Source: Camelus dromedarius
Taxonomy: Eukaryota
Direction: 5' to 3'
DNA length: 64,000 nucleotides
NCBI RefSeq assembly: GCF_036321535.1
Contig: NC_087436.1
Location: 69,814,001 to 69,878,000 of the forward strand
Below, piece by piece: positions 8,049-58,278 of the stretch. The position numbers and the translations under genes were made by a program. How positions within the stretch are numbered: the first letter of the stretch is position 1; each line of letters starts with the position of its first letter. The notes under the pieces were generated by a model. It had not been told where the DNA came from. It made no database searches and saw nothing but the letters and a program-made list of their open reading frames with translations.

Positions 8049-8444
8049 TATTGACTTCATTCTAAAAATAAAGTTGGACTGGCTCTACATTCTAGGTTCA
8101 AATCATTAAACAAAACTTGATAAACATTGTCTTCTGGTCTTTTGGCATATAATGTTCATGGGTTCTGATTCATATTAGTTTCCTTTTTATTTCTATTCAT
8201 TTTTAGGATTTTCTTTTGATTTTTATAATATTAAGATTTTAATTGAATTTGATTTTTTACAACTTTCATTATGTGGTATTTCACAAAGTCTTCCAAAGAA
8301 AAGTGCAAAGTCTTTATCCAAGCCTGGGGGTTGTTTTCTATTATTGGTTTAATGTAATTCTACCTACTGTGATCTCAGTTCTCAGATATCTTTAAACTCT
8401 TACATATATATTAGATCTTGTTCATCTTTTTTTGTATATATATA

Positions 8445-12993: not shown

Positions 12994-14712
12994 GGTAACT
13001 GGCAAGTGAAGAATTAATAGGGAACTCCATTCTTTTCATTGAAATTTGAGTTTGCTTGTAGATCTCACATGAGTTCTTTTCCAACCAATGATATCCTATC
13101 AGAGGTTCTGAAATCAGTTTAGTAGACAGTCTTTCTAATCATTATTATCTGTGAATCAAAAGCAAATGGAGTCTAGTGTGTTCCCTTTACCAAGCCTGGA
13201 CTTTAACTCTGTGACCCTCTCTTGTAAAACTCAGTTTGCAAGTCTCAAATCTATACAAGTAGGTCAATAACAGTAGTTGCAACAAGATGTGGTTAGCATT
13301 TATTTCACAAATACCACATATACTGAAATATTAAAAGCTTAAACTGTTATATGTATCTTTCTAAAAAGACTATTTTTAAAAAATCAAATAAGCAGGTGTG
13401 ACTCCTATACTCCTTTAGAAAGATAAGGCTAGTTTATTTCTTTAAATATTTCAGTCAAAGCCCTGTCATTGTCATACCTATGTTTTTATTAAAACAATCA
13501 AGTTAATCTCATCATTCATGATGACTGGAGAAGTAATTGTGAAGAATGCAGTTTCAGTATACCCTCCATCTCCTCCATCTTACATGTTCCTGTTAGACCA
13601 ATCATGGAATTACAGAATTTCAGAAATTTTAGTTCAAACTTTCATTTATAGGTAAGAATAGTAAGGCCCAGATAAAGGAAATTACTTGGACAAAATTGCA
13701 CAAGTAGAGATAGAGCCTGAGATGGAACTCAGTTCTCCAAAGGAATGTGTAGTCACACAGTCTCTGGTCCTGAACCACTCAGCTGGTTTCCCTTGTTTAC
13801 AAAGCCTTGCCTACTCTTCAGACTGGCATGGGAAGCCTCTCCTTTTGCTGCCCTAAACCTTCTTTCCAACTTTATCTTTCCCTTTTCTCCATTTAAATGC
13901 CCATGGATATTCAGAAGGCTTTCTCTTCTATTTGAATGTTCTCTATTAATCTCTGCGTGAGTAAGTCCCACCTGTATCTCCCACACAAGTAGTTTGTTGA
14001 TTTCTTAACTGAAAACTTCTATATGTAGAAAGCCACTTTTGTGACATTTTCGACTTTCTTTCCTCTAACAGTGACTTGTTGTTGCAACTCTCTTCCTACA
14101 ATTGATGCTACTGGGTAAGACTAGCAAGACCAATTCACCTTGATAATCTCAACACTTGACAGTGCCTTGTTCTTTATATATATAAGCTAAAATTTTTATT
14201 TATAGGTAAGAATAGTACCTATAAATGTACATATATATTTATAGGCACCATTATGTGCCTATACATTATATATGTGTATGTATATGTGTATACATAGGGA
14301 CACATTTTTTTCCAACAAAGTTTAAAGTTATTCAAACTACCTGTCCTTCTCTACAACAGAATAAAATTCTTATGTAATTTAATTATTTATAGAAAATTGT
14401 GTCTATGACTTTCCTTATTAATGGCCTACTAGTAGGTTCCTGGTACATGTTAAATGAATATATGATTAACCTTGTAATGATACTTTTAATATTATAGCCA
14501 AAAATCAAATTCATACACATTATACTGTTTGGTTTTTCTAAAGTTTTTAATAAAATAAATTTACCACATTGGCTATATCTACCCATAAATCTAGTGGGGT
14601 TTTTCCTTAAAGCAAAGAAAACATTGTTCCAAATCACTCCTAAATTATTAGTAATAGATCCTTTTAATTTAATTTTTTTTTAATTTTTTAATTTTTATTT
14701 TTAGGTGCAATC

Positions 14713-14766
14713 ATGAAGAGCTTCTTCCTAGTTGTGACTATCCTGGCATTAACTCTACCTTTTTTG
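14713..14766 (+). CDS. CSN3: Kappa-casein exon 2 coding part (signal peptide MKSFFLVVTILALTLPFL; exon 14705-14766)
   Basis: Acceptor ttag|GTGCAATCATG, 18 codons, donor TTG|gtgagt. Confidence 0.97.
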
Positions 14767-18910: not shown

Positions 18911-19372
18911 TGCTGTGAGAAGGTGGAAAGATTGCTCAATGAAAAAACAGTCAAATATTTCCCAATTCAGTTCGTGCAGAGTAGATATCCTAGTTATGGA
19001 ATCAATTACTACCAACACAGACTAGCTGTACCAATTAATAACCAATTTATTCCTTACCCAAATTATGCAAAGCCAGTTGCAATTAGACTACATGCTCAAA
19101 TTCCTCAGTGCCAAGCCCTGCCAAATATCGACCCACCTACTGTGGAACGTCGGCCACGCCCACGTCCATCATTTATTGCCATTCCCCCAAAGAAAACCCA
19201 GGATAAAACAGTCAACCCTGCCATCAATACTGTTGCTACTGTTGAGCCTCCAGTTATACCTACCGCCGAACCAGCAGTGAACACTGTAGTTATTGCAGAA
19301 GCTTCCTCAGAATTCATCACCACAAGCACACCCGAGACCACCACAGTCCAAATTACTTCGACTGAGATCTAA
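18911..19372 (+). CDS. CSN3: Kappa-casein exon 4 coding part (exon 18911-19404)
   Basis: gcag|[23 protein letters not shown]...[13 protein letters not shown]...QITSTEI*; the spliced protein is 182 aa; donor ACAG|gtaaat at 19404/19405. Confidence 0.98.
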
Positions 19373-23263: not shown

Positions 23264-24124
23264 CTACCAAAGGCAGTGATAAATTATTAGGTTAATTTTA
23301 AACTCAAAAGAAAATTGCTGCAAGTCATAATACTAATCACAGCAATATAAAAGTGTAAACAGAAAATGTTTTTACAATTTAATCTGTTTTCAAGGAAAGA
23401 AAGTTGAATGTCAACAGAATGATAACCAAATTGCTATATCAATATTATGTATTATCGTAACTCTAGCATACTATTTAGAAGGAGGTGATGGTGTATCCTC
23501 TTCCTAATCTTCCTAATGTGATAAACTGTAGTAGTGGCCGAATGCCTGGATTATTGGGATAAAGGCTATAAACCTAACAGTCAAGACTAAAGAAAAAAAA
23601 TGGGCTTGAAAGATCAATTTTCTTCTTTTTATGTGTATATTTTATTAGAATATATGGATAAATCCAGAAACTCTTGAAGGCAAGATTAAAGTCCTAAATA
23701 TCCCTATAAAATTAACATTTGGCATTAACATAGTTACTTTCCACATTTAAAAATCATTCTTTTGAATTAGTCACCATAAAATACCTATAATCATTGTTGG
23801 GATGGTCAAGACAAGAACCTTAAAGAGTAAAACTTTGACATACCTCATGACACAGAAATAATAAACTTTAAACTGATGATTTCAAGTAATAGTACAAATG
23901 ACAAAAATTTTATAAGGAATAAAATTATTCTTTCTTTTTCCTAAGTAAAGGTGTAACAGTGAAACATAATATTTCCACAAGAAGAATCTACACAAGAAAC
24001 TGATTTTGTCAACAGGCTTGACTTTCTTTTAATCGGTATTAACCCTTGCCAACAGCAATCATATTAAAGTCTTCTCAGTCTATCCCCAAAAGGAAATAAG
24101 TAGGAGGGACATTCAGGGATGAAA

Positions 24125-27100
24125 GCTTTATTTATTCAAAAGGGACTCGCTAGTTTTCATTTGGAGACAACAACCACCAGAGAAGTCAGAGCGATTAAGA
24201 GAAGATGAAATCTTATCAGAACAGAGGAGAAACCCCTTCTAAGGTATCTATGCAGATAAGATATTGGGACACGGATTTTTCTTTCAGGCCCCAAGCTTGC
24301 CACAGTTTGGACTATGGAAAAGTAAATTTAATAACTGAGATTATCTTCTGACCATTAGACAAATTAAACTTGTTTCTAACACTATTAAACTGCTGATGGG
24401 AACCGATCATACCCACTCAAAGGCTAGATTCCCACCCACTTACACTATCTACAATTTAATCAATGTTTATTCCTATGAATTACTCAAGTTCTATGGCTTG
24501 ATAGCAGCCTGTGATAAAATGCAATTTAAGTGAAAAATCACAAGGTAAACATTTTTTTGTTGAGTAAAAATAGTTATAACAAGAATGCCTCATTCTGCCT
24601 AAGGCATTTCTTGTTGATAAATTAAGTGCAGACTTCAGCACTTGCCTTAACCCTTCCAGGTCGATATGGAAGCACTGGCTTTGACATCTTAAAAGTGTGA
24701 AATACAATTTTTTAAGCTAAAAGCTTTTTTAAAAATAATGTTTACTTAAATAATTAATTTATTCTTATATTTAGAGAAGCATTAAGTTGTTAACCCTAAT
24801 GACTCTAAATTATGCTCATATCCTTAAAAATTTATAAATGGTGCAAAAAGCTCTTGAATAACCAGCAAATTACTTACTGACAGTATTGCTTTCTGAGAAG
24901 TCTTAATATCATCATTTTCCAAAATAAATATGAATTTGAAAATCTATTTGTCACTACACAATTAAATATGGACTATCTGTATCACTTTTTCTTGCTAGTG
25001 TCCATGAAGAAAATATGAAAGCCCTCAGCTTATCTACGATCATCTGGAACCTTACTACATTCTTCTTGGTAAGGTTTCAATGCTTTTCAACAGGTAATTT
25101 TCTTCTCATTTAGAAAAAGATAAAGATGTTCTTATCAATCATATGCCACAAAAACATCTCAGACTGAAACATCATTGTGTTTGGAACCAGGATAATTCAT
25201 GCTATGTTGCTTTAAAAAAAAAGTACCATGAACTTTACTATCTTAATTTCTGAATATTCATACATGGGCATATCTATACATGTAATATAAATATAAATCA
25301 GAAACTTACATCCACACGAAAACATGCACACGGATATTTATAGAAGTTCTATTTATAAAGGCCAAAATTTGCAAGCAACCAAGATGTCCTTCAGTGATGA
25401 GTGAATAAACTGTGGTGTATATATATAATGAAATATTTTTCAGCATTAAAAACAGAGCTCTCAAACCATGAAAAGATATGGAGGAAACTTAAATACATAT
25501 TACAAACTGAAAGGAGCCAATCTGAAAAGGCTATATATTGTATGATTCTAATTATATCACATTCTCAAAAAAGTACAACTATAAAGACAGTAAAAATATC
25601 AATGCTTGCCAGGAGTTAGGAAGGATGAACAGGGAAAGCACAGTGGATTTTAGGTAGTGAAATATTCTATAAGATGCTATAGTGGTGGACACTTGTCATT
25701 ATATGTTTGTCAAAACCCACAGAATGTACAATACCAATAGTGAACTCTAATGTAAACTATGGACTTGGGTAATATCATGTCAATGTAGCTTCATTGATTG
25801 CAACAAATTACCTCTCCCGTGGGGTGTTGACAGTAGGGGAGATTGTGCATATGCTGTGGCAGGGAGTATATGGGAGCTCTCTGTAGCTTCCATTCAATTT
25901 TGCTGAGAACCTAAAATTACTCCCAAAAGTAATGTTTTAAAAAAATATAAATCAAATCTGAAAAAAAATTTAAATGGCTATTTTTAGATACTTACTAATG
26001 AATATTTTTAAGTACACTCAATGTGACTTGATGCCACACATATTTAATTCTTTACTTGTATTTTTTTTACTTGCAGTCAGATGAGAGTCTTAAAACTTAT
26101 GACCAGTCAAGACAAATGCTATCGAGGTTGAATTCACCTTCTAAAATTAGAGAAACAAAGTCATCTTAAGCACAAGCTGCACTAAGATGAGCCCAGGCCC
26201 AGACTATTAAGTCACCAAACCAGTTTTCACTTCCTGGAACTCAACCAAAATTGTCTCTATCTGTTTTACCAAACCCATCTGTGGCATCTGAATTTAAAAA
26301 ATCTTCAACTTCCAAGTCTACATCCAAGCTCTCATTACCTTCCCAAGATGCAGCAAAGAGGTCTGCCTCTATCAAAAAGCAATGTTTAGCTAACAACATT
26401 GCACAAAAACAGCCTCAGTCAAAATCAACCTCAGAAAAACAGAACTTAATCCACAAGTCTGCATGCAAACTGACCTTAGATGACAAGTCTACGTCCAGTT
26501 ATCTCCCTCCAAGACTGGTATAAAAAGAAAGAAAATTACTAAGCCTAAACAGAAACAGTCAAAAGTTACCAAGTCTGCACCCAAGAAGACATCATCTTCA
26601 CACAATACAGGAAAAATTTCTTCAGTTGCCAACACTACACAGAAATCAACTGTAAAGACAATAAAACCAAAGAGTCCAGCTGCCAAACCTGTTCTTAGAC
26701 AGACATCATCTTCCCTAGGTACAGTGAGGAGTCATTTGGTTCCTAAGTCTAAAAGGCCAGAGTCTAAAGTTTCTGGGACTAAAACAAGGAGAGTTGTTTC
26801 TAAGTGGTCTCCACCAAACAATTTAACAGGCTCCAAACATACTTCAGAAAGAACTGCTAAGTATCAAGGATGCAATTCTGCCAAAAGCCAGCATCTAGCT
26901 TCCCAAAACAAACAAAGGAAGATGAAACCTTTGCATTCTGTTAACCAGTTTTCAAATTTTCCAACATCACGCAAGCACCATGGACACAAACATCATCCAC
27001 CACCATCCTGTCTGATAAAATCTCATTCCTCTCAACTTCAAACTCAGACATCTAAACCTCATAAGTCTACACCTTGTCCACATCAACCCAAAAAGCAGCC

Positions 27101-27935
27101 ATCTGAGAATCCTGGAGAAGTAACGATTGCATCATACACAGTACCAACTCCTGCCTTTGCAGATGCCACCACGACAGCCACTGGAGAAGCTAATGATACT
27201 ACTACCAGCATTGCTCAAACTGTACCTACCACAAAGCCCTTACTGCTACCCTCTCACCTACTGTCACTACCTCTGCGTCTCAAGTCACCACCCTGTCGGC
27301 TGACACCTCCACCACCAGACAAGAGATCACAACCCTTGAAGGCGACACAACTATTACTCTAAGTGACACGACTGCTGCTCCAGCTGATGAAACCACTTCT
27401 GTAACTGAAACTGCTATGTGAAAGCTGGCACAACTATTGGAGAGACGGCTGTAACTGTGACTAGTCCTGCAGCCACTGCAGTGAACACTAATTGTGCAAC
27501 TGACACTGCACCCACTACAGAGGTCCTTAAAAGCACAACAGCTGCTCCAGGAGTGGACACTTCTACCCTTGGCACTACTCTGCCTGTGATCGCTGTCACT
27601 TCTGCTCTCCCTAGTGCCACCGCTGCTCCAGGATATGCCAGCACTACCACCACTACAACTGTTGGCACTGCACCTGAAGATGTCACCAACCCTGAATAGT
27701 ATACTTATGACACTGAAGATTCTGATTTAGTCTCAAAATATGAATATGACCCAGCACTCCCTGAAAAGTCCAGAATCTAATGCCACAGACCCTGTTACTC
27801 CTTCAACTCCAGGTGCCACTCCTCCTATATAAGATGTCTCAGGACCCACAAATGACATTACCCAGTACCTATGGGTGATAACTACCACACAGAGCCCTTG
27901 AATACTGATTGAATACCCCCCAAAATAATAAAAAA
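24125..27935 (+). pseudogene. Gene A: disabled SCPP-family secreted Lys-rich/Thr-rich mucin-like gene
   Basis: Candidate exon 1 ending 24243 (aag|gtatct). Exon 2 is 24999-25068 with ATG at 25015 (MKALSLSTIIWNLTTFFL|gtaagg). Exon 3 starts at 26077 (ttgcag|SDES...) and encodes K/S-rich, H/P/C-rich, then T/A-rich sequence. Stops at 26167, 26188 and 27697; frameshifts near 26505, 27240, 27415 and 27770; AATAAA at 27927. Confidence 0.8.
25300..25960 (+). mobile_element. Old LINE-1 (L1MB/L1MC-like) 3' end in gene A intron 2
   Basis: aagcaaccaagatgtccttcag, aataaactgtggtgtat, gtcaaaacccacagaatgtacaa motifs. Confidence 0.8.
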
Positions 27936-28779
27936 TATGAGATTTTAGCAGTGAAAATATCACAATTCTTTAAGTACACTTTATTGTATTGTAGTTTTTA
28001 GTCTTTCTTCTTTATCTATCACCAACATATCATGTCACATATTTGAAGTACCACAAGAAGACTTGTCATTGCATTTTACTGTGATGACTAAATTCACTTT
28101 ACAGGCCTCAGTACTTGACATGGAAAAGGTATTTATCTCTTATTCTCACTCTAGTCTCAAAACTACTTGATGTCCTAAGAGCAAGTATCCCTAAATCCTC
28201 TTAATTCCATAAGTGCTGAAGGATAATGAAAAGGATAATTTATTAACTTGACAAATTTAATTTTATGAAAGGAAATAAACTCTTAAAGGTGCTTACCTAT
28301 AGAAAATACAAATATCTTACATAGGATATGAGATTTTGGGATGCTGTAAAAGCAGAGATATTATTCATGGCACCAAGTCCCCATGTTATGTTTACAAAAA
28401 TAAATCATAGATTAGGCCACAAATATAACCTCCCCAAATGTTAAAAACAAAGAGGTTCTATAATCGGGAACTTCTCTTGCTAGACTGCAACAAAACTAAA
28501 ACTTAATTATAAAATCTAACAAAAAATGTCCAATTACTCTTTCAAAGGAAAAGAACTGTAACTAGACAGTAGCAATAAAGAGTTTAAAATAAAAATAAGA
28601 CTATCTATGCAGGCTAATAGGATGTAATCAAAGTTAGGTGAAGAGGTAAAACACTGTATTAGTATCATTTTAAGGTAAGAGTAGATTTATCAAAAAGTTA
28701 TGCTCCTAGTTATATCCCAGAAATATAACAAAAGAATTCTAAATAGCATAGAGGGACTCTAAAAAGACTAAGATCTTTT

Positions 28780-29231
28780 AAATCCAGTTTTATTGAAGTA
28801 TAATTGAGAAAACTGTATATATTTAAAGTGCGCAAAGTGATGATTTGATATGCATTTGTGACATGATTGCATCAAGCTAATTAATACATCCATCACCTCA
28901 AATGGTTACTCTTTTTTTTATTGCAAGTATACAAAACAGTGTTATTAGCCATAGTACAATGCTGTACTTTAGATCCTCAGAACTTATTCATTCTATAACT
29001 TAAAGTTTGTACCCTTTGACCAACATCTCCCCATTTCCCCAACCCCAACCCTTGCCAATCACCATTCAATTCTGTTTCTGAGTTTGGTTTATTTTTTTTA
29101 ATTTCACATATAAATGATACCAGATAGCATTTGTCTTTCTCTGTCTGGCTTATTTCACTTAGCAAAAATCCTTCCAGATTCATCCATGTTGTCACAAATA
29201 CCAGGATTTCCTTCTTTTTACAGCTAATATT

Positions 29232-29262
<31 letters not shown>

Positions 29263-37910: not shown

Positions 37911-40900
37911 TAAATGAAACCATAACTTATCATTTTAATTATTTTTATTAACAACAAAATTGAGTATGTTCTCTTCGATTAAATTTCTGAATCTCCTTGT
38001 GTTAACATTAGTAAAGATGTTTTAAAAATTTAAACAAACATAAACATATAATGTTAATATGAGATACTTTTCCCACTACAAACATTGTTAGCCAAATGGA
38101 CTCCAGGTGCAGGAAAATATTCTATACAGAGGGAACAGTTAAAGCAAAGATCACAATCGTTTTCTTAGACAGTTGTTAAATAAAACAACTTACAGCTTCT
38201 GACATTTGAGGACAAGAACTTCTTCACCCAAAAAACTCTCTTGGCAAAGCAACAATATCTGCTTAACAAAACTATAATTTTGAACTTCGTGAAGGAATAT
38301 ATAGTGATCAGTGTTCTGAAGCAAAAGGAAACTTACATGTGAAAAAAAGCAAATCACATTATGAGTCATATCAGTGTAACACTCTTAAGTGCCTGTGGCC
38401 TTTCTGGCTTGAAATTGATGACCTGACATCTCATGAAAAGACAGCATTATGTTTTATTCCGCTACTAGCACATTTACTATACTGTTGAGTATCCAGCAGG
38501 CATTCAGCTCAAGAGGTTCTTTGAAGCAAAGGTGAATTAGAAGACATATTCCCCTAATAGTAGAGGAATTGCCCAATGGGAATATATTGGATCTACTAAA
38601 AGCCGTCCTTTGAAAAAGAAGGCCATTCTTTTTCCATTTGATCTTTCATTAGAATCATTATTTATTGATGTATTCTCAGTATCTACTAAAGAGCCTAAAA
38701 ATATAATTCTTTAGTATTTTTGAATGAATGAATAAGTGGGATTTATTAGTAGAAAGTTATAATCAATATTTTTACTTACAAATCAAGTAAGGTAAACAGC
38801 TGTTAATTCAAGCTGTTAATTCAGTTAAATACATAAATGTTTAGGTTTTAATTTGTTATAACTATATTTACAAACAACTTTACACTGTATTTTATGCATG
38901 AGTAAATGCTCTCATTTAAATCTAAGACTATCTTCATGTATTAGGAAACTATTATTCTCTTTCTACATGAGGTTAAATGATCTCTCTGCAGACCTGATGT
39001 GACAGCTAGGACTTAAACATAGATCTAAATCCAATGACAACTCCATTTACCGTGTAAGAACTATCATTATTACTTCAATGAATTTTCAAATACACTAATT
39101 CTCATGTCTGCATTTCTTTGGCAATAGAATTTTTACTATCTTCCCTGGTTAGTGATTTAATATATATTTACATGTGAAAAATGGTAAATGATTAAGAATA
39201 AAATAACAAATATGCAGGCAAAATAACCTTCATATAATTAAGAATATACTCAGAAAGTTCTAAGGTAGCTGCAAATAAAATGGCTCTGATATTCACTTTC
39301 AAACAAGTTGATGCGAAAGAAGTTCCTTATATTTTTCTGAATAAAAGTATTTAAGAAAATATTTCAATATATTTTAAGCAATTAGAAGAATTTTGATTTA
39401 CATTTTCCCCTTGAATATTTTTATGCCTTGATTATTTCAATTCTACCAAAAAACCATGGGAGTAAATTATGCAAAAATAGAGTTGATTAAAGTTGTAAAG
39501 CTGTAGGAATATAAGATAAAATATTAATTATTCTATGATTAATATTAAATTACTAGATAATGTTTTTTTTATAAAGTTCTTCATAAAGAAATGATAGCCT
39601 AGAAATCACGGGATTTAATTATCCATCATGATGAATGATGAGTAAAAAGAAACAGGTTTATGTATATTTGCAATGATATACATAGCTAACCTATTTTACA
39701 AACATTTATGTGTGGCTTTCTATGTGCCAGCTACTAAAATGTACAGTGGGGTATACTTATAATCAAATAAATACAATCTCTGCCCTCAGAGAATTTGAAA
39801 TCCAGTATGGAAATCAGCATTTAAACATATAACTACATAAACTCATGTATGAATTTGTTAATTATGAAAAACCGCTACAAGTGCAGAAAGAGCAAATGAG
39901 ACACGGAGGTTTCCTGAAAAAGTAATTCTGAGCTGGGATCAAAATACTAGTGTAAACTTCTATTGTTTAGAAACTTGCAGGGTTTAACAGGACAACAGGG
40001 TTATAGCCTTTCACTTGCTGGCTACTGCCACTTTTTCCGCGGTAAAGATTTTATACACTGTAAACCAAGAACTCCCTAATATTGAGAAATTACACAGAAA
40101 TAGATTTTAGAGTGAGAATATGGCACTGTGTATTTACAAACTGGACAGAGTCAGGTAGAAATAAAGAAAAAGTAATGTCTTTCCTTCTTTCAACAGCCAT
40201 AAGAATGTGTGTACTTACTGTCTCTTTGGATTAGAAGAGAAAAATTAAAGAGGAGGTTGAAAGTAAGAATCAAGGATAAGCAAGCAAAGAATTCAAAGGA
40301 AAAGCAGGACAGAAAACATTTGAGAACATTGAGAAGTTCTCTAAGAGTTAGGAGGAATTAAATCTGTGAGAGATTAACAAAGCCTATGCTTTCTTTCTAC
40401 TTCCACATCCTCCCAACTCAAATGTAGATTTGAGGGGTGGTGTGTTCTGAAGTCTACAGGAGGAAGGGGTTTATTACATATCGAACTTGTTTGCTTTCAG
40501 CTAACTGAGCCAATGATTTTGTCTTTAAAAAACAAGAGTAATAAACACTCTTCCCACTCAAATATCAAGTATACAGTAGTTTCACAAACTGGACTATTCA
40601 GAAACATAGATTATATAATGTTATTTGTTTTTCTGAGACTGGGCCTTTTAATTTTAAACAATACTGCTTTTCTTTTAATATTTCTTGAAAGACTCATAAA
40701 ATAATTTTCTTATGTTTTTCCAGTTTAATTATACATTGTTCACCAGCTTCATATAATTTTGTGTAAGATGATACAGTTTTCACAGTTTCTATGGATTCAA
40801 TTTCTCTCAGGCCACGTGTGCAAATGCGTCTAAACAACTCCACTTTTTTAAGTTTTCCTCTCTTCTTTTTCCTTCATTTCTTAGAGAATTATTTTTACAC

Positions 40901-41027
40901 TTTAGGCCTCACCCAAGACTTTGACTCACAATAAAAATAAATTCATGTTTTTAGACTATTGTCTTCTAACTAATGAACATGGTAGATTCCTCTTTTTATT
41001 GGGTCATTTTTAATTCTGCTTAATAAT

Positions 41028-41584
41028 TGTGATACGCAGAATAATGCCCCCCAAAGATGTCTCTGCCCTGATCCCTGGAAGCCATGAATATGTTATTCTC
41101 CATGGCAAAAGGGACTTTGCATTCATGATTAAGATGAAAGACTTTAAAACGGTGAGAGCAGCTTAGGTTATGCACGTGAGCCCAATTTACGCACATAAAT
41201 CCTTAAAAGTAGACAAGGAAGGCAGAAGAGTAAGCCAGAGATATGACACCTAAAGGACTCAACTGAGTCTGAAGATGCAGGAAGCGGGTCGTGAGCCAAA
41301 GAATGTAGCAGCCTCTGAAAGTCAGCAACAGCTCTCAGTTTATAGGCAAAAGGAAATGGGCCTCTCAGCTCTACAACCACACAGAACTGAATTCTGTCAA
41401 CAACCCAAATGAGCAGGAAACAGATTTTCCCCTAGAGCCTTTGAAGAACAATACAGCCAGCTGACACCTTGCTGTCAGTCTGGTGAAACCCACCAGATTA
41501 TTTTAAGTATAATATAATAAAGCTGTGGTTTTTAAGCCACTAAATCTATAATACTTTGTTATGGCAGAATGGAAAACTAATACA
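41028..41584 (+). mobile_element. MaLR LTR (MLT1D-like)
   Basis: TG...CA ends, with aataatgccccccaaagatgtc and ggaaaactaataca terminal motifs. Confidence 0.8.
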
Positions 41585-45800: not shown

Positions 45801-46999
45801 AAATAAATAAAACAGGAATGATTCTCAACTTACAGATAAGAAAATGGCATTTACAAATAAGTTTACCCAGGTCACACAGTAATAAAATGACAGAGCTAGG
45901 AGTTAAATCTAGGCCTGTGATTCCAGGTTTTGTGCTCTTTTTACCATTCTAGAATTGCCTTTAGAATGTTTGTGCAATTTTTTCTCAAATACACTGGTGA
46001 TTTCTCACAGCTATATTTGTTCAGAAGCAGCTCATTTGCCATTGGTTCTGGTATGTGTTTCAACATAGATGAATATGTAAAAATGGTAAATAAATCAGTA
46101 TAAAATTAATAAAAACAAGTATGACAAATGAAAATTATCTATATTTCTCATTGCATGATCACAGCAATTGAAAAAGTATTCAGAAAGAAGATTACTAGGT
46201 AATTGGATGTGTTCTCTTAAAATTGGGGGGATTCTAAGTCATAAGGGTTGCAAGGAAAGGGAATGGGTGTGTAGTGGGGTAGACATATTTCACAAATCTC
46301 TGTAACATTGACACTTCGAGTTTATATGCTTAAATGTGTTCTAACTCAACGGAGGCGAGATTATTTATATCCTTTTATTATATTTTTTCAGACATTTATC
46401 TCTATTTCTATAAAACTTTGGAGTATTGAAGCAAATAGCAAAAAGTGAAATTGATCAAATTCTAAAAATTTGGAAACACATAATATATAAATTATTTCAT
46501 AATTACAAATAAGAAATTGATGCATAGTTTTCTTAGAATGGGTGATATACATAGAAGCTATAGTTTTAACTTATGAATTTTGTCAACTATCAGAGTTTAT
46601 CATTACCCCTTCTAAGTAAAATATAAGGTAGAGTTCTCAATGCTGGGACAAAAAAATCCAAAGGGCAAATGTTTCAAGATTAAACTGAAATGGGACTACA
46701 TATGCAATTTTTTTTCCTAGCCCCCACTCTCTACAAGAACTAATAGGCGAAAAGTAGGCAGTACAAAGGGAAGGCATGGTTGCTTTATTAGATGGAAGAA
46801 TCATTCAATCAGTTCTCTGTACACCTGCAGGCATCAAGTCTTAGAGGCACTGGCTGGATCAAGAAGAAGCAAGCCCTGACCAAGATCCAAAAGAGGCACC
46901 CCTCTGAAGGTAATTGTGTGGATAATGCCAGTGCTTATAGGGCACTCTTACTCCAGATTCTTCTTTTCTGTTTTAACTAATGCCTACTTTTTTAATCAA

Positions 47000-47500
47000 G
47001 AAGTGGCTAGGGAGCACTAATGAATTAGTTCAGTTTTGGACAGGCTACATTAAAGATGCAATGGTACAACCAAATGGAGGTGTTCAAGAGATACGAGTTT
47101 TGATCAATAAGCTTAGATGTTAGTGTATGGATGGAGGCTGTTTCCAAGTGGCTGCAGAAACTCACACAGGCCATTGCAATTGAGTGAGGAAAAGACAGGA
47201 CTGATGCCAGAACCCAAATGTGGGTAAGGAAGAAAGAAAATCCATGAATGAACCTAAAAAAGAACTTCAGATAAGTATAAAGAAAGCCAGGGTAAGGTGG
47301 CTTCACAAAAGCCAAAAGAAGAAGGAAGGACTCAAGTCAAACTCTAGACAGAATGCCAGCCTGAAGATAAGAACTAAATAAGACTGGGTTACTCCAATTT
47401 CTAGATGGAATCAAAACCCTTATTGCTGTGGACTGTGTAATAGAATATGTAAAGGCCTTCGAGGAAGAAAGGAGTATCATAAGCAATACACAGACAGACA

Positions 47501-47536
<36 letters not shown>

Positions 47537-48130
47537 GAGACCAAGAGAGACGTGACTGAAGAACAGTGAGAAGTGAGCTGCAAAGGACTTTATAAGTCAC
47601 TTGAAGAATGTTTTTTCTTTAGGATAAAGAACAATGGGAAACCAGTGAAAGGTTTCAACCAGGGGACTACAGCAATCAGATTTGTACTTCATTAAAAATT
47701 ATGTTGATTTAATTAAAAGCAGGGCTGTGGCTCAGTTAAGAGACTGCTTTTGTGATCATGAAAATTCCAGGGGGTCAGGAGCATTGTACTGCTCTTCCCT
47801 CTGTCCCCACCTCCTAGAACAATGTGTATTACATAACGGGAAATCACTAACTGTGTGCTGAGCTGAGAGGCCCAAGTAAAATACGGTACTAAGTTGGATA
47901 GGATACTGTTGGTGAAGATGAAGACAGGTGAACTGATTCAAAACACTGTCTAAGAAGCAAAATATAGGGAGGATTTAGTGATTGATAGACATGGGAGAAT
48001 GAAAGGGAAGTCAAGATTGATTTAGGATTCTGGCTTACACTAACAACTGGGTGAATAATGTGCCATTCACTGAAAAGGGGAATACTTGGATGGAATGTTT
48101 TATTGGGAAAGACAATGACATAAACTGATT
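47000..48130 (-). mobile_element. LINE-2 fragments with an internal (CA)n tract (about 47490-47533)
   Basis: gttcagttttggacaggc and gtgccattcactgaaaaggggaatac are L2-type motifs. Confidence 0.55.
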
Positions 48131-48169
48131 CAATTCAGGCTCAAACTGAAACACCAAATGGTTGCACAG

Positions 48170-48401
48170 TCTGACAGATTTGCAGATACTAACTATATAT
48201 AAAATAAACAACAAGGTCCTACTGCAAAAAACAAACAAACAAAGGTCCTACTGCATCGCACAGGGAACTGTATTCAATACCTTGTAATGGCCTATAACAA
48301 AAAAGAGTATGAAAAGGAATATATACGTGTATATATAAATGAATCACTATGCAGAAATTAACACAACACTGTAAATCGACTATACTTCAAAAAAAAAAAA
48401 A
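48170..48401 (+). mobile_element. LINE-1 3' end with poly(A)
   Basis: aacaaggtcctactgca (locally duplicated), cagggaactgtattcaatacc and an A-tail. Confidence 0.8.
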
Positions 48402-49110
48402 GATGACTTGTGACAATTTAAAAAAATTCTAAAAGTTGATCTGTTGGCACTGATGGCCAGTAAGCTAAGGGTCCCACAATCATTCTCACATGCCACGTGC
48501 TACTAGAGACCAGCTCATTTTTATTGAACTTCCTTAAGATAATTCCTCAGATAGTACAGTCTGTCTGTATTTTCCATTTTCCTTTCACAAAATTCTGGTA
48601 TCAGAAATCTTTTTCTTCTGTATATTCATCTTAATAATCTGGCATCAAAGACATATCATAGACTCTCCATGCACACAACTGTCTTATATTAGGAAGAACA
48701 ACATAGTGTTCTTCAAAACTAGATTAATATAGGTCAGAAATAGATTTCATCATTCAAGACCTTTAACTATGTTTACCTCATCTGAAAATCATTTATCAAT
48801 AGGAGAAGTACTTAATAATGTTTATAAAGTATTTTCAGAACAGGTATAAAATCCTATAGCCCAGAAACTATATACTGGAGGGAGTAGGAGAGCAAAAGCC
48901 AAACAGCATCATAGAATCTCAGGATTTTCTGGAAACTGTCCTTGAAACACAATAATACATAGAGCACTATGTCACCCATCAGACATACAGGAGCTGAGTT
49001 CCATGAAGCTGACCTCTCAACTTAATAGCACTATTCCTAGAACTCTGTTTGAGCCACAGCTCCTACAATTTTCCTAAATTATTATGGGAGCTGGGAAGGG
49101 AAGGAGAAGT

Positions 49111-49113
<3 letters not shown>

Positions 49114-49154
<41 letters not shown>
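49114..49154. repeat. (TG)n microsatellite
   Basis: Direct reading. Confidence 0.95.
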
Positions 49155-49156
<2 letters not shown>

Positions 49157-52100
49157 CACATGTGTGCACACAATGAGTGAATAACAGGGAGGTGAGGAAT
49201 TTTTTTTTTGTAGTTGTTGCTGTGTATTTTAATGCATTTTTTAAAATAAAAGTTTTAATTATGAAAATTTTCAAACTTACAGAAAAGCATAGAAAATATG
49301 TTTTCAGGCATGCATTTAACAAATGTTAAGCTTATACCATATACGCTTCAGAGAGCTCTATGCCCGTTTATTTTTAAAGAAATATTAGATACGAAGTCCC
49401 TCCCTCTTTTCTTTTTCTTTCTTCCTTATTTAGTTAATCAATTTCCTATAATTGGTGTATATCATTTCTGTAGTATGTTTTTATGCATAAACATTTATAT
49501 ATTCATAAACAATATATCATATATTTGTTTTGTTTAACAAAACAAAAATATATTGTTTATCATTGATGGATGAATATGTAAGTAGAGAAAAACAAACAAA
49601 AAAAGATATGTTGTTTATGGACACATAGACATGTAGTGATAGTATAGAATAGCTTGTCCCTCCCTTTCTCCCCCACCATGTATGTGTGTGTGTGTGTCTA
49701 TTTGCAACTTATTTTTTCACGCATCATGCATATTCCTACATGTAGCACAAATAGTTAATTTTAAACTTCTGTATACTGTTTCATTAGTGAATAAACACCA
49801 GCATATTCATTAACCTACTAATGAGCAATCAGGATGTTTCTAATTTTTTTCTATTACAAATGATTCTCAGTAAACATCCTTTTATGCACGTTTTCTTGTG
49901 TACATGGATGAGAGTTTATTTAGATTATAAACATGCAGAGTGGTAAGGATGTCTTTGGTTTCCCTGGGTAGTTCTAATTTCTCTGTAAAATTGTCATGTA
50001 ACTCTCAGCATCAATATATGAGAGGCTCCAGTGTCTCCAGATTCGCCCTCATACCTACTATTGTCTTCTAAATTTCACTGATATCATGCATATAGAATGG
50101 GTAACTCATTCTTTCAATTTGTAATTCCCTTTTTACCAGTGAGTTTTGGTACCTTTTTTATATTTATTAGCTTTTTAGGTTTCTTATTCTCTGAAGTACC
50201 TGTTCATAAAGGTTTTTTAGAACAGCAGTCAATTGGAATTTCAAAAGTATTCAACCTTAATTATCCAGACACACTAACTTCTTTTTGAATGGGCTCAATA
50301 TATTTTGTACTTTGAGAAGTAGTTTTCAGAGGAATCATATTTACAGTGATATGTGGATATTTTAAGATTAGAAAAGGGCATTCATGAGAGCTGAGCTCTT
50401 TCAAGGTGGAGAAAAATCAACTTTATGTACACAAGTCACCAAAAATAATGTTATTGACTGTTCTATTCTACTGGAACTTTAATCATCTACCTTATTTTTT
50501 TGGTAGTCTCGATTTTTTTCCACCTCCTGTGTTTTCTTCCCAAGTTCCTATACTTCTCTCAACAACTGATCAATATTATTTTGCATACACTCAACACATT
50601 GGTGAGGAATTTCTTAATCATTATAATTCTTTCTGGAAAATGAAGCTTTCCTGTTAAGTGAGAATTTTTTTAATAGTAGTTTCATTAACAAACCAAATGG
50701 AAAAACCTAATTTTAGTGGTTTCAAATAATAATGGTGTCTTCAAAAAAATATATATATATATATGCATCTTAATTTTACATCCAATTTTCAGTTCAACTT
50801 TAGGAAAAGAATTTTTTTCTTTATTATTAAAATTGCTACTAAAACTTTAGTTTTGTGTTACTGGGCAGTTTGATAAAACTCATTCCCTCATTGTCAAGCA
50901 CATAACAATTCCTTCCTCTTGTTTCTTTATGTATAGGAGTTAAAAGGACAAGTTGAAGACTGTAATCCTGACTGGGCTTATCCTGGTCTTTGCCATTTGT
51001 TTTCCGGTAAGATTCTATATACTTGAAAACTAGAAGAACTACCTAAAATTGAAAGCTATATAACACTGAAATGGAGGTCACAGTGAGATTATGTATTTTT
51101 AAAAACAGGACAGAGTCACATGAGATGGAAAGAAACAGAAACAATTACCCTCTTTTTCTAATATCCATGGAAATATGCCCATTCAAAATCACTTGGAATC
51201 TGAGGAGAAGGGGCAAAGCATGGGGAAGTGTGGAAGGGAAATGAAGAGAGAAAAAGAGGGAGAGAGAGCAGAGGCATGGCTATTAATTGAGGAGGGTAAA
51301 GTGTGAGAACTCTCCACATAAATTTGGAGGAGTAGAACTAGACTTGCAAAGAAATCACCCAGACTCCCACTTCTCTTTAAGGTCCATGTCTACCCACCAC
51401 CTACATTTTAAGGAGATTCCCCTCCCAATTTTGTTTTTCACTCAACCTCTGGGTCTATTATCACATTCTTATCATCAAAAGCTGTAATATGTTCCTCCAC
51501 TTAAGATATAACTACAAAAAGGAAGATGGTAAGAGGGTCTCTTTTATTAACATCTAAAATAAACAACTGTATTTCACATATTTGACTTATCTGGAACATA
51601 ACTTGTGCAAATAGGTTTTTAATGTACAAGAGCCTGGGTCTCTTGAATTTTATGGCCTTTTGCTTTTCTCTTTTATACCTCTTGCCTTCTGCTCTTGTGA
51701 TTCAATTACATGCTATTCACTAGTTCCTTATATCTCCATCTGATCAGAGAGCACAGTATCCGCTATTTTTAGAACTATATGTGATCTTCAAGTGTCTGTT
51801 CAATTCTGTTTAACCTACCATGTTTCATTCCAAGGATCCTTTCCTTTTCTGCCATCATTATCATTTCCTTGCAAAATTGTTCCCACAGTATTCAGTCCCT
51901 CAAAGTTTTTATAAGCAAGAGAAATAGCTTTTTGTTGTATTTTTTAATACCTAACTTTCTGAATTCAACACCAAATATTTCTCCTTTACATAATTTCTAA
52001 ACTGGAGTTTAGCTATAACGCTTTCATTGACATTCATGTAACATAGTTGTCTCTGTGATTTTTTTCATTAATTCCTAAAGGACATGACAATGATTTTACT

Positions 52101-52729
52101 CTGCAGTTTTTAAGGGAAAAACAAGTTGTCAGAAATTTAGTGGTAGTATTTTACAGAATCAACTAATTGGATTTCCCCAAATTTTATTTCTACATTTGGT
52201 TGGGTTTTCCTGGATTTTCTAAGTAAATACACTAAGCATTGAAAGTCATACCCAGGTACCTTCTCTAATCATCCACATATTGTGCCTTGTTATTTTAAAT
52301 TTATAGTGCAATTTATTCTAAATTTGTCTGACACTCAAAACCAAAACACCTCCTAGCTTTAAAAGTAGACCAGTTTCTGAAATTAAAATGAGAATACAAA
52401 ACAATAATTGACTGATTGTTTGATTTGGTAATATTTTCTTTTCTCTCCCCCTGCAGTTCAGTGAGAGTCAGCAACCGCGGCATCGAGCAACAGGAAAGAC
52501 AGTCAACAGTCGACCAGCGCTAAGCTCCCCTGCCAGGGCATCACAAAGTAGATCTTCATCGACCCAGGTCATTAGGAAACCTCAAGCCCTTTCTTGTGCC
52601 TCTGCCGGATCTATACCAACTAACAAAGCAGCCAGCCAATTACCTTCAAATCTGAGGACATCAAGCAAAAAGAAAAAGCCATCACAAAGACAAAATCTAC
52701 AAGGCAAGCCTAAGAAAAGTACATTGACC

Positions 52730-53760
52730 TCTGCCAAGAAAGGGTTGATCCCCCATTCATCTGGTCTAACAAGACGAACTATTCCACTGAAGGCAAGCAA
52801 AACTCTCAAACAGCCTAAAAAACGTCAAAAGACAACTGCCAAGAAACAGTCAAAACGGACTGCAGCAGCACCAAAATCATCCTCAGCCATAAAGAAAAGC
52901 CAAAATGCATCTGAAAAATGCCTGTCCACTTCTAGCAAGAAGCAGCTGAATCTCCCAAGAAAGGCTAAGGCTGCTTCAAAAAGAACTTCAGCTAGGAAGA
53001 AAAGTCCACAAAAATCCAAGAAAATCCAGTCTACACCTGCTAAGAAACAGTTAAAACAACCCACAATTGGAACAGCTCCAAAAACATCTCTACCTAATAA
53101 GAAATCTAAAGCCTTGTCTGTATTATCCAAAAAACAATCATCTAAGTCCACAGCAATAAAAGCTTCCCCACAAACTTCTCCAACCTCAAAGAAAAGACCA
53201 AGTAAATCTCACAAAACTCTGTATTCATCTGCCAGGAAAAACCAGAAGCAGGCAAAAGAAGTTAGAACAGTCCCCAAAAAAAGTGTGGCCAAAAAGAAAA
53301 TTCTAAAGAAACAAAAAAATAAACAATTAACTTCAGTCAAAAAAAAAAAAAAAGGGCAACTAAGAGGACAACAGCAACGAGATCAGCTCCTAAAGCCAGA
53401 AAGAAAAATCTAACTAAATCTAAAAAGGCAGCATCTGCATCTGCCAAGAAAAGTCTCAATCAGCCAAAAGAAGTTGCAACAAAAAGGAAAACCTCTATAG
53501 CCAAGAGAACCTTTACTGCACCTGCCAACAAACAGGTGAATCAGCCTAACGCACTAAATCAGTGCTAAAAACACAAACAGCCTCAAAGAAAAGACCACGT
53601 AAATCTGAAAGCTCCTTGCCTAAAACTGCCAGGAAGCATTCAAATCAAGCAAAAGAACGCAAACCTCCAGCTCTCAAAAAAACTCTGGCCAAAAAGAAAA
53701 AACCTAACAAAATTTAAACCAGTTGCCAAAACACAGTCTAAATCTGCTCCAGCAGAACCA
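52730..53760 (+). repeat. Degenerate ~100-nt coding tandem repeat in the Lys-rich region of gene B
   Basis: A ctgccaagaaa-like motif (SAKKQ) recurs near 52731, 52836, 52931, 53037, 53229, 53441, 53522, 53626 and 53724. Confidence 0.65.
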
Positions 53761-56700
53761 GAAAGATCTCTAGCTAAGAAGAAAATTCCCAAAAAGTCTA
53801 CACAGAAACAGCCCACAACAGGCAAAAAGACAACAAAAACTGTTCTTTCCAAGAGTAAATCTATAAAACCATCTAAAAATAGACAGCCCATAACTCAAAC
53901 AGCAAAGAAAAGAACAAGTAAATACAGAAAGGGACCATCCAAACCTCCTAAGAAAGGTGCAAATCAGCTTAAATCTCTTCAAGGAAAGAAAAGACCATCT
54001 CCCTTAGCAAAGCAAAACTATAAAACAATCTAAAAAAAGGAAATCTACACTTACCAAAAGATGGTTGAAACCATCTAAACCAAAAGGACCATCTAAATCT
54101 AAAGGTCCATCTAAACCATCTAAACCCAAAATTCAGGTTGCACGGAAAAAATGCCCACATAGCAAAGTCACAAAACCACTTCTATTACATCCTTCATCTA
54201 AAGTTCATCATACCAAACTTCCTTACCCACAACAAAATCGACCACATAAGTGCCCACTGAAGGTTCATCAATTCTGTCCACTTCCACCAGGACCGTGGCC
54301 AAGTGCCCTGCATTCCCAGGCACATCAGCAGCAGCATCACCAACCTCACAAGCCACCCTGTCATAAACCAAAACCTCCAAAAAAGGCCAACGGGCCCTGA
54401 AGGCATTACAACTGAAGGCCCAACCACTGCAACTAAGGGATCAGAAGCAACCACCAGAATACCTGAAACCCTGTCCTCAATGGCTGCCACTACAGCCCGA
54501 GTAGCATCAACCACTAACTCAGCAACTGTTAGTGGTGCTGGTGCTGGTGCTGTTTCCACCACAACTGCATCAGCATCTGTGACGACATCAGAGGCACCTG
54601 CAGTGGCATCTACATGGCAAGAGTCTACTGCTTCTAGCTCTACAATCTCCATAAACTCAGGAGCGAGCTCCACAACCCTCTTAACCTCTGCCTCCACCAC
54701 CATTACACCTGATTTAACCATGGAGGTCTCAGAGACTGAAGCAAACACAGCAGAAGATACCACTCTCCCACCGACAGATGTTTCCACCACTCAAGATGCC
54801 TCTACAACTTCAGCAAACTCAGGTACCACATCCCCTGCTATGGTGGCCACCACTGCTGCAGCCACAACCTCCACACGTGTTGAAGCCACAACTGTAACAC
54901 CTTCCACAACCCTAGGGACTGGTGCTACCAGTGCTGGTGCTACCTTATTATTATCCATTGTTGCCACAACTGTTGGTGCTACTACCACAAAAGTACCTGG
55001 AACTTTTAGCATGGCTTCTGGTTCTGTCACAACCACAGTTGCTCCTGGTCCCACAACCACGGTTGCACCAAGTTCTACAACTGCCAGTGCACTTGGGACT
55101 GCCACCACAGCCACATCAAGTTCTACCATCACACCAGCGGGTGAGACTACCACTGAAACAGTGATTGACACAACCACTGAAACTAGTGCCACAGTGAATG
55201 AGGAAACCACAGAATCAGCCAATGACACAACTAAAGCTGCCACCACAACTTCACTTGATGGAGTCACAACTGGTGCAATGGACTCCACACCTTGGAAACA
55301 GACTTAACACCCACTGCTACTACAACTGCTGGATCCTCACCCCCAGCGCTGGTAGGAACAATCCTCACAACAGCAGCAGCCTCTTCAACTCTAGGGCAAG
55401 ATACAACCACCAGCGGTACAGCCACAACTTCAGCCATCAGTAACACAACTGCAGCTGTTGGCACAACTGTAGCAGGTGCTGCCACTTCAACCCCTGTTAC
55501 TTCAGCCCCTACTGCTGAACCTGATGTGTTGACCAGTCTGGTAGAAACCACCACCCAGCCTCCTGGAGCTACAATTCCAGGGGAAGAGGCTACCATTGGA
55601 CCAGCAGATGACACAACCACTAAAGCTGTCACAACTGTACCTGCTGATGCCACAACCCCCCCCCCCCCCCAGTTAACGCTACATCCTCAGCAGTAGACTC
55701 CACATCTCCAGCTGCAAGTACCACTGTTTCGGCAACAACCACAGTATCTGAAGGAACTGCCACTATAACTACAGCAGCCTCCACAACTCCAGGGGTTGGT
55801 GCCACCACAAGTGTTACCACCACACCTTCAGTCACTCATGCCACATCTTTTGATACCACCACAACCACACCAAGTGCTGCCACCACCACACAAGGTATTT
55901 CTCACTCTACTACTGAATCTGGTGCATTGACCACCAATGGTGAAACCATTAACCAGACCCCCAGTGCTACAGCTCCAGGGGGTGAGGCCACCACTGAGTC
56001 AGCAGATAACACAACCACTGAAGCTGCCACCACTCCAGCCAAGGGTGCCACAACTGCACCCACTGATGCCACAACCCCTTCAGCTGACTTCACAACCTTA
56101 GAAGCAGGCACCTTATTTGTGGCTACTACAGCAACAGCTGCTTCAGCTACAACCACCATTCCTATAGCAGCCACCACTGTAACAGTGGCAGCCTCCACAA
56201 GTAGTGTGACCACACCGTCAGCCTCGGGTGCCACAACTGTTACCAGTATGGGTGTACCAGATACTGGCAATTCCATCCCAGTTACTTTTGCTTCCACTGC
56301 TGTACCTGATTCTTCAACCACTGAAGCTACACCTGCAGTGGATGATAAAATTTTTGAACCTGTAGATGGCGTTAGCTACACAGCGGCCACTACAACTCCA
56401 TCACTCTCCGTCACGACCACAGGCTCTGAAGCTTTAACCACAGGATTGGACCCAGCAACCACAGGAGGTGAAACCACTGCCACTGACAGTGAGGTCACTA
56501 CTACCTCAGCCAACGACACTACTCTTCCTGCGACAAGTACTGTAGCTACCATGACTCCTGCAGAATCCACGGAACCCTCTGCGGTTTCCACAGCTGCAAC
56601 AGATACTACCACTCCACCTCCTAAAGGAACCTCCGCTCCTCCAGCCATCACAATGGCAGCAGCAACCACCACTGAAGCTAACGTGATTACTACTGCACCA

Positions 56701-58278
56701 GCGACAACCATCAGTCCCACAACCACAGTCACCACCAACACAGCCTCCACCGAAACCATGTCTGCTGCTGACAGTGGCACACAACCACCACCCATTACTA
56801 CAACCACAGCACCTACAGCCAGCGCTAGTGTTTCTGTCTCACCATAAATCAGTGCAGCAGCACATTTCAACATGTCGGCAACAGGTAAATTACTGCATGC
56901 AAAGAATAAAATGAGGAAATTCAGTAGTGTTCTGTATATCCCCAAATAGCTTACATATGGTTAGTTACTCCTGATCTGCCCAAATTTTTTATAGTTCTAT
57001 GAAAGAGAGCAGATATTCTCCCATTGTACGTATAGAATATAGAGTTATGGGATTAACTCAAATTCAGAACACATGGTGGTAAAGCCAGGTCTAGAATCCA
57101 AATCTCTTAACACGTAAGCCAACAGTCACAAAGCTTGGAATTCTAGAATAAAGATCCCAGAAGATATTTTATTTGACAGTTGACTCACAATCACTTCACT
57201 TCTTTTCCAAAATAAAGATTACTGAGCTCTGCCATTCTAGATACTATACATATTTCAAAATATATATAGATTTTGTATCTGTAGTATACAAAATCCTTGG
57301 GGGGTGAGGAGGAGTCTGATGCAAGGTTACAGGTATGAAAACACCCAGACAGCACCTGAGAAAGGGAAATTGGCAGATATACAAGCTCAAACATGAGGAT
57401 GAGTATCACAGTCAAGAAACTGTAAGCAGCTGTACTTGACTGAACCACAGAAAAAATAAAACCTCCATTAAGTTCTGATGGAAATGAGAGCATAATGCTA
57501 TTATTATGAAAGAAAATCCTTAGAGATGAAAATAAATTTAGAAAATTTTATAGCCTTGAAGATACAATATGACAAAAAATTTCTAATGTACATTATAGAA
57601 CATGATATATTATATGATATAAAACTCTAAGATAGAAGTAGCAGATTAGGACTATTTCAGAGAAAAGATTACTAGAGCATATAATCTATCAAAATTTTAT
57701 ACAGAGTTTAAAAAAAAAAAGATGTAAACATTCTAGGTAGTAGTAAATGATGGATTAGGCCTTAAACAAAGCTAGCTAGCTATGCCTGACTCTAAACATA
57801 AAACATCTAACTAAATATGTTTTACTCTAAAACAGAATTATGAGCTGTCAGGAAAATGAGAGAGTGGTGCTGGGGGCAGGGGCGCATAGACCATATAGAA
57901 TGGAATTCATTTCACATAAGAAATAGAAAATAACAATTTTAAAACAATTAGGTGATGTTTATAGGACAGTGAAAATTAATTTTATATTTCCCAACATTTT
58001 TTCTAGGTCCTACTCTACCTAAATATTAAATTTCTCACCTTAACTTTTGGCGATATTGCCTCAAGAACTGACTGTCATACTTCAGAAATGAGACCATTGT
58101 AGAAATTTTGCTTCTTTCACTCTCTCACTTCTTAAATGCATTTGGATTTACTTCTTTAGCTTTTGTTCAATAAATCATTTTGAGAATCATTTTTCCCTGT
58201 TTATCTCACACATTAGGAAGTAAATTAAAAACTTCATATGCTTGGTCCCACTAAAAAGCTCCCCATAATGAGCAATAC

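Follow-up and report, generated by a model that had tools for sequence, protein, structure and literature searches.

A broken mucin-like gene 3' of dromedary CSN3, probably a unitary pseudogene of an ancient mammalian gene

The stretch of dromedary (Camelus dromedarius) genome analysed here (64,000 nucleotides of contig NC_087436.1, positions 69,814,001 to 69,878,000 of the forward strand; the window) carries a broken gene, gene A, downstream of the kappa-casein gene CSN3. We interpret gene A, with a probability of about 0.8, as a pseudogene of unitary type, left by an ancient three-exon gene (boreoeutherian at the least) from the locus of secretory calcium-binding phosphoproteins (SCPP), lying directly 3' of CSN3 and encoding a secreted, charge-polarised small mucin. 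Its parts, in window coordinates, are as follows.

24074..24243 (+): promoter and putative non-coding exon 1, with a TATA-like element at 24127 and a donor after 24243, placed by alignment to the neighbouring gene B
24999..25068 (+): exon 2, flanked by AG and GT; 16 nt of untranslated region (UTR), ATG at 25015 and 54 nt encoding an 18-codon signal peptide, phase 0
26077..26927 (+): head segment of exon 3, K/S-rich and cationic, of 284 codons with a net charge of +48; broken by stops at 26167 and 26188 and a frameshift near 26495
26928..27107 (+): hinge segment of exon 3 (His/Pro/Cys), with 2 Cys in 60 codons
27108..27675 (+): mucin-type segment of exon 3, Thr/Ala-rich and free of tandem repeats over its 190 codons, with frameshifts near 27232 and near 27417
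27676..27832 (+): tail segment of exon 3, acidic and Tyr-rich, closing with the conserved motif PVTPSTP; it has a stop at 27697, a frameshift close to 27766 and TAA at 27830
27927..27932 (+): putative polyadenylation signal AATAAA, from the sequence motif

A 15-codon upstream open reading frame (ORF) runs from ATG 24205 in the putative exon 1 into exon 2 and stops just before the main ATG (24205-25007).

The camel gene cannot make its protein. Frameshift-aware alignment to three full-length relatives returned an identical lesion set each time, comprising the nonsense codons TAA 26167, TGA 26188 and TAG 27697 and four frameshifts, and so bore out what a first-pass annotation of this DNA, made by eye from the letters, had listed as disabling. 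When exon 2 is spliced to exon 3, the product ends after 48 residues. A late nonsense change, the fourth, may exist at TAA 27830: the pangolin relative has Gln there, although two other relatives (P0001 and P0002) end at about the same place. Several disablements here and an intact orthologue elsewhere are together one mark of a unitary pseudogene, another being the lack of a working copy in the rest of the genome. That the lesions are assembly errors in a gene still intact in camels is highly improbable: the three in-frame stops are substitutions, the frameshifts fall in base runs of at most 4, outside long homopolymers, and independent DNA runs (six rows, from three studies without a possible-source mark) contained 0.99 of 436 sampled words from 24000-28200. 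Seven assembly errors would cost about 5% of words (7 x 31 / 4171), so the lesions are probably real.

Several relatives of gene A keep the frame that the camel has lost. In tblastn searches they match gene A at E 1e-70 to 5e-115, a similarity that is therefore not due to chance, and three of them (P0008, P0001 and P0002) are 57-64% identical to it over 564-571 aligned codons. The longest open fragment of A, used as a query, found three longer proteins among 1942 candidates; one cluster from that query joined Manis javanica XP_073092393.1 (591 aa) and M. pentadactyla KAI5278927.1. The latter (P0009), the Chinese pangolin orthologue, is annotated 'Plasma Membrane Calcium-Transporting Atpase 3', an evident misannotation. 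The M. javanica protein is whole: its RefSeq model joins an 18-residue signal exon to a continuation beginning TSES, and the camel exon 2 peptide is identical at 12 of 18 residues to that of pangolin P0008 and at 11 of 18 to that of P0022, so that the exon 2/3 junction is conserved. Intact copies and a shared splice structure in other species, which the first-pass annotation had named as a check, are thus found in the pangolin. P0022 itself (UPI000328DEC3) wrongly fuses kappa-casein, A exon 2 and the beginning of exon 3 in one gene model, and so shows CSN3 and A in the same order in another mammal.

Searched against 1.84 billion representatives, a profile of A orthologues matched 20 proteins, 19 of them new, all A-like and alignable to A and none B-like, with no named rodent or dog protein among the 20. 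They include Tupaia chinensis (tree shrew) ELW70443.1 (P0012), 50% identical to A where the pangolin is 57% identical; the Manis javanica and Tupaia proteins have the same four segments as A, but in open frames. Many of the other matches are short ORFs that run out of frame. P0015, P0020, P0023, P0024 and P0047 are frame-broken A-family ORFs, of which P0020 and P0023 share a distinctive tail with the tree shrew; P0047 lies on 269 contigs, and this suggests a pseudogene in a much-sequenced mammal. An alignment search of near-length proteins matched 2 of 7999 and added nothing new, and none of the 106 and 599 pattern matches to orthologue DNA in Joint Genome Institute (JGI) metagenomes was confirmed.

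In a tree of 11 rows, the camel groups with P0002 and P0007, both open through exon 3, and with the partial ORFs P0013 and P0004 (support 96/96); the camel loss is thus separate from a close lineage that kept the frame. Drift would leave an exon of this length open over 60-80 million years (My) with a probability of at most 2e-6 at the camel lesion rate, the neutral rates for this estimate, as for the lesion ages below, being assumed values. The open frames in pangolin, P0001, P0002 and tree shrew therefore point to selection on the frame.

A further orthologue has been catalogued under another name. The 'MUC3A-like' protein of the star-nosed mole (GeneID 101631113) appears in the accessible text of PMC9417175 as the sole member of group 8, one of 15 claimed independent events. 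Its peptides (Pajic table S1), compared by eye, are collinear with A from head to tail, through head, hinge, stalk and the terminal PVTPSTP: mole TGKKSSVAN, LFPKSKCPE, KSHSSQLHT and TGPVTPSTP correspond to camel TGKISSVAN, LVPKSKRPE, KSHSSQLQT and TDPVTPSTP. The mole model, as far as that source gives it (PMC9417175), is without the signal exon and about the first 185 residues and has 27-bp repeats, whereas camel A is repeat-free and broken. Judged by sequence, the mole protein is an orthologue of A. With orthologues in Laurasiatheria and in the tree shrew, the gene is at least as old as the split between these lineages; on the same kind of evidence the A family is ancient, at least boreoeutherian. 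Our literature search, whose coverage of subscription papers was incomplete, returned no description of gene A or of a camel pseudogene at this position.

Some points weigh against this account. Exon 2 is modelled in the pangolin only, the tree shrew and mole models beginning at an internal Met, and P0001 and P0002 are ORF calls limited to exon 3. The evidence for the lesions consists of the assembly and sampled word shares, with one camelid compared for A, and a second copy of A may lie elsewhere in the camel genome, our search having covered the 64-kb window. The tissue and activity of the A orthologues are suggested by analogy with their neighbours.

Where it is whole, the gene encodes a protein of about 590 residues, predicted to be disordered, in which a putative signal peptide leads into the cationic head, and the His/Pro/Cys hinge and Thr/Ala stalk come before an acidic Tyr tail. 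Full-length relatives have 528-618 residues; in the camel, exon 3 begins SDES at 26077 and has about 585 codons, and the product read through with X has 603 codons including exon 2. Across five sequences the head has 273-290 residues (net +44 to +67), the Pro/His/Cys-rich hinge 58-65, the stalk 134-190 (Thr 25-31%, Ala 15-19%) and the tail 50-60 (D+E 22-29%, 4-5 Tyr). In the camel, the head has 21% K+R and 19% S, the hinge 15% H and 17% P, the mucin part 31% T and 16% A, and the tail 24% D+E. The tail is among the better-conserved parts (pairwise identity 46-73% versus 35-56% in the stalk); its net charge is -11 to -15 where the gene is whole, and every full-length relative has 4-5 Tyr with at least three acidic neighbours. 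The first-pass annotation rightly described K/S-, H/P/C- and T/A-rich segments totalling about 600 codons and missed this fourth part.

Structural and family searches gave no leads. The ESM Atlas model of an A-type protein is of low confidence throughout (predicted local distance difference test 0.39, predicted TM score 0.11), and Atlas comparison reached a best feature score of 0.75 with TM at most 0.19. None of five A or B ORFs matched a Pfam family, nor did five of six proteins in a further search, the sixth matching kappa-casein alone. A low-confidence model and the lack of a Pfam family are expected of a disordered protein. Combined Thr and Ser (27-30% in the head and 32-39% in the stalk of the five sequences) exceeds the threshold of about 20% in the mucin definition of Pajic 2022. 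That definition also includes exonic tandem repeats rich in proline, threonine and serine (PTS), and among the 21 Tandem Repeats Finder rows of the window none falls in 26077-27830; nor is the origin lineage-specific, another element of Pajic's scheme, given orthologues in camel, pangolin, mole and tree shrew. Gene A is mucin-like by composition and, in the camel, outside the repeat definition.

The window covers part of the mammalian casein/SCPP cluster, anchored by the kappa-casein ORF at 18824-19372, and gene A is the first gene-like unit 3' of CSN3, on the same strand and about 2.7 kb past the last CSN3 exon. It lies in the CSN3-AMTN interval in the common orientation, AMTN being beyond the window, next to gene B, a catalogued gene of that interval. 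According to Kawasaki, P/Q-rich SCPP genes reportedly share a plan in which exon 2 holds a short UTR and the whole signal peptide and is followed by a phase-0 intron. Gene A conforms to it with 16+54 nt (compare 8+54 in CSN3 and 54 bp in MUC7). The two CSN3 features used as references are these.

14705..14766 (+): CSN3 exon 2, 8 nt UTR and 54 nt of signal-peptide coding, phase 0; control for exon geometry
18911..19372 (+): CSN3 exon 4, coding part, with its acceptor located; Pfam PF00997, E 1e-65; anchors the locus as a casein/SCPP cluster

Gene B is the second broken gene of the window.

46723..56910 (+): gene B, catalogued in the camel as 'MUC19-like' (GeneID 105080436), with the donor of exon 1 after 46909; its peptides match Pajic 2022 table S1
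50937-51006 (+): gene B exon 2, 16+54 nt, with TTG in place of ATG
from 52457 (+): gene B exon 3, starting FSES; seven frameshifts and no stop by frame tracking

In the portion of PMC9417175 available, its family is group 2, made up of camel 'MUC19-like', ferret and pig 'MUC5AC-like' and seal 'MUC19-like'. The first-pass annotation had treated A and B as a tandem family of basic-head mucins that share an exon-2 geometry (16 nt UTR plus 54 nt coding, phase 0) and similar exon 3 starts (SDES and FSES). Those observations were accurate, except that B begins with TTG; the geometry is not specific to the A-B pair, a 54-nt phase-0 exon being generic and present in CSN3. The two genes are same-strand neighbours alike in E-S at residues 21-22, a K-rich head, an H/P/C hinge and a T/A stalk, but they differ in length (~1,480 codons in B v 600 in A), in the charge of the B head (net +165), in the lack of an acidic Tyr tail in B and in showing no significant coding alignment. 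A has its own deep line of orthologues and its own tail, and hence is not a decayed copy of B. What stands of the earlier claim is a dead, secreted, basic-head, mucin-like A; the paralogy draws its support, which is weak, from the alignment of promoter and exon 1.

We consider it likely that A and B arose by one old tandem duplication and were lost separately. The segment 24074-24259 of A aligns with 46723-46925 of B up to a common donor (z 6.1, 0 of 300 shuffles; pair chosen by eye). Among 2062 and 2064 windows, each of these promoter/exon 1 segments has the other as its best match (margins 73.5 v 68.5 and 73.5 v 61.5), in a test that omitted any window overlapping the query or the central part of A's second intron, and nhmmer gives the same pair E 0.022. 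The exon 3 starts align at z 3.2, in part because of the acceptor. Other comparisons speak against common descent: the A-orthologue profile scores barely above local shuffles on B (1 of 200 and 6 of 200 reach it), in hinge tests 2 to 317 of 500 shuffles reach the A-B score, and the acidic Tyr tail is absent from B. A less likely explanation is convergence, in which A and B share the generic SCPP plan alone and gained K/S head, H/P/C hinge and T/A stalk from different short precursors, a mucinization of the kind in Pajic 2022. It would accord with blastn of 23-29 kb against 45-58 kb, the form in which we ran the dot-plot proposed with the first-pass annotation, which found nothing better than E 0.012, with the exon 2 pair at z 0.8 and the 3' ends at z -0.9, with an A exon 2 closer to CSN3 (8 of 18 residues) than to B (4 of 18), and with the absence of B-like proteins from the profile matches. 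Convergence would leave unexplained the reciprocal-best promoter/exon 1 pair with its common donor end, the 16-nt UTR in both genes, the shared position of E-S and the same order of domains.

A was probably lost before B. Lesion density is 4.0 per kb in A (seven in 1753 nt) and 1.6 per kb in B, where seven frameshifts and no stop were tracked in 4388 nt at 3 of 4 penalties tried and the ATG is lost; in a blind control, frame tracking of A found two of its three stops and three of its four shifts and misplaced the tail. A makes up a third of the target and has all three nonsense changes (P 0.04, or 0.01 with TAA 27830). For all lesions the one-sided P is 0.07, falling to 0.04 with TAA 27830 and rising to 0.105 with the B start loss, and it is 0.39 for frameshifts alone. 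The assumed rates put A at roughly 13-32 My and B at 5-14 My as point estimates of age, with overlapping intervals. Against an early death, camel A has about half as many unique amino-acid changes as the open P0002 (42 v 83, 45 v 98, 40 v 66), unlike a gene in long decay. Dating A by protein divergence was rejected, the camel branch not being long.

These overlapping intervals and P values leave some room, in our view limited, for A and B having died at about the same time, or B first with the loss of its ATG, the density difference being chance. The Bactrian model of B likewise avoids exon 2 and skips the broken head, and B is probably broken in the Bactrian camel too. Speaking for the loss of A first, besides the nonsense changes, is the state of some B lesions. 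The dromedary gene differs from the Bactrian model at a few residues, and the frameshift near 55294, which that model reads through, is a recent lesion, a polymorphism or an error, so that at least one B lesion is very recent or false. Two B frameshifts also fall in 15-base homopolymers, where those of A fall in runs of at most 4. The statement that A died earlier than B is thus suggestive, with denser lesions and all nonsense in A for it and P values of 0.04-0.1 as its measure. No homologue of the B head was found among 7992 candidates.

Two further genes of the interval invite comparison with A. MUC7 resembles it, as far as the available text of PMC4997351 describes the gene, in lying in the SCPP locus and in having a 54-bp signal-peptide exon 2, two coding exons and a cationic N-terminus; its register F19-S20-E21 is comparable to the E-S at 21-22 in A. 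MUC7 differs in lying at the far end of the interval (human order CABS1, SMR3A/B, PROL1, then MUC7) and in its short head, Pro-rich tandem repeats and leucine-zipper end, against the roughly 285-residue K/S head, repeat-free stalk and acidic tail of A. We rejected A as a MUC7 orthologue: A is the first gene after CSN3, and the MUC7 repeat peptides are without counterpart in it.

The other is mouse 2310003L06Rik, a tongue-specific SCPP gene which we take to lie between Csn3 and Cabs1, and it is improbable that A is its camel orthologue. The style of the two genes matches. In the accessible parts of PMC5558704 (Ponting 2017), 2310003L06Rik is a fast-evolving, secreted and disordered SCPP gene, conserved in its start codon and splice sites only and pseudogenised in some lineages; near-neutral sequence evolution and repeated pseudogenisation are likenesses to A. 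According to the same source its length varies 3.7-fold and the dog copy has repeats (PMC5558704), which does not fit the narrow size range of the A relatives. The 20 profile matches, with no named rodent or dog protein, also speak against identity, and in the part of the Pajic table consulted six A motifs match the mole protein alone, bar one unrelated camel MUC2-like peptide. A and 2310003L06Rik are probably different genes of the interval.

For the working protein we give even odds to a non-gel-forming mucosal or glandular mucin of MUC7 type, by analogy with that gene. It would be secreted from an exocrine or mucosal tissue, as the neighbouring genes suggest. Its cationic head, left exposed, and its His/Cys hinge would attach to microbes or anionic surfaces in the manner of the MUC7 N-terminus, which the available text of PMC4997351 describes as histatin-like, unglycosylated, cationic and His-rich, ahead of the PTS region. 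An O-glycosylated Thr/Ala stalk would be both a spacer and a decoy for glycan binding, and sulfation of the tail tyrosines may let them bind a basic partner; a comparable acidic Tyr context is described, in what is accessible of PMC9372746, for flexible anionic sulfotyrosine clusters.

Some residual transcription of the camel locus, as a non-coding RNA or for a short peptide, is conceivable but unlikely to be its present role. Promoter and poly(A) signal are intact, as are the splice sites and the ATG, and two RNA-seq runs (X16 and X17) labelled reproductive system contained 0.47 and 0.42 of the words from 24000-28200, near the share expected of a spliced transcript (0.466 for three exons, 0.441 for exon 3 only). 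Two runs guessed to be RNA had shares of 0.58 and 0.36, and runs with shares of 0.12 and 0.05 were not used. X16 and X17 come from one study, however, and patchy genomic DNA could give the same shares; residual transcription is common in pseudogenes and is no sign of function. The camel signal peptide also has a hydrophobic core weaker than that of the pangolin (10-residue Kyte-Doolittle maximum 1.64 v 2.5; 3.17 in P0022), and the upstream ORF is present.

The window holds further relics and repeats.

38283..41102 (+): relic C, a truncated B-like duplicate in blocks of about 66% identity (nhmmer E 5e-24 and 5e-25)
33161-33640 (+): relic D, Thr/Ser/Pro-rich and frame-broken, possibly a further decayed exon

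Relic C includes upstream DNA, a decayed exon 2 at about 39981-40042 (z 9.2 against B) and part of intron 2, and no match to exon 1 or exon 3 was found in it. Leaving A, B and CSN3 aside, relic D has the top mucin-like codon score (10.8; background -40.7, standard deviation 11.1); its DNA matched none of these three genes, and its motifs gave no informative match in Pajic's table. Mutually similar interspersed repeat fragments, of long or short interspersed element (LINE/SINE) nature by eye, lie at 6479-8934, 28921-30216, 34558-35130 and 48228-48404.

We tentatively suggest that large, secreted, charge-polarised mucins (A, B and perhaps a 2310003L06Rik-type gene) may already have formed a tandem family in the CSN3-CABS1 interval of the boreoeutherian ancestor. 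A would be a member of it that has escaped notice, bearing a cationic antimicrobial head and a sulfotyrosine tail, and would have become patchy by repeated loss in camel, in some other artiodactyl-like and carnivore-like lineages and in a tree-shrew-like lineage with broken frames, the camel copy perhaps still being spliced and transcribed in the reproductive tract. Were this so, some of the '15 independent origins' published for SCPP mucins would come down to loss and annotation gaps. One catalogue entry is corrected here, since the mole one-species mucin has orthologues across Laurasiatheria and in the tree shrew; mucinization is not overturned, and the mole repeats may be that lineage's own gain on a Thr/Ser-rich ancestor. 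Birth versus loss at the locus now becomes directly testable by genome alignment. Camel gene A is a dead gene at a turnover-prone locus, and its value is as a pointer to a mammalian gene that in several lineages keeps a frame of about 590 codons and that has a distinctive, conserved acidic Tyr tail.

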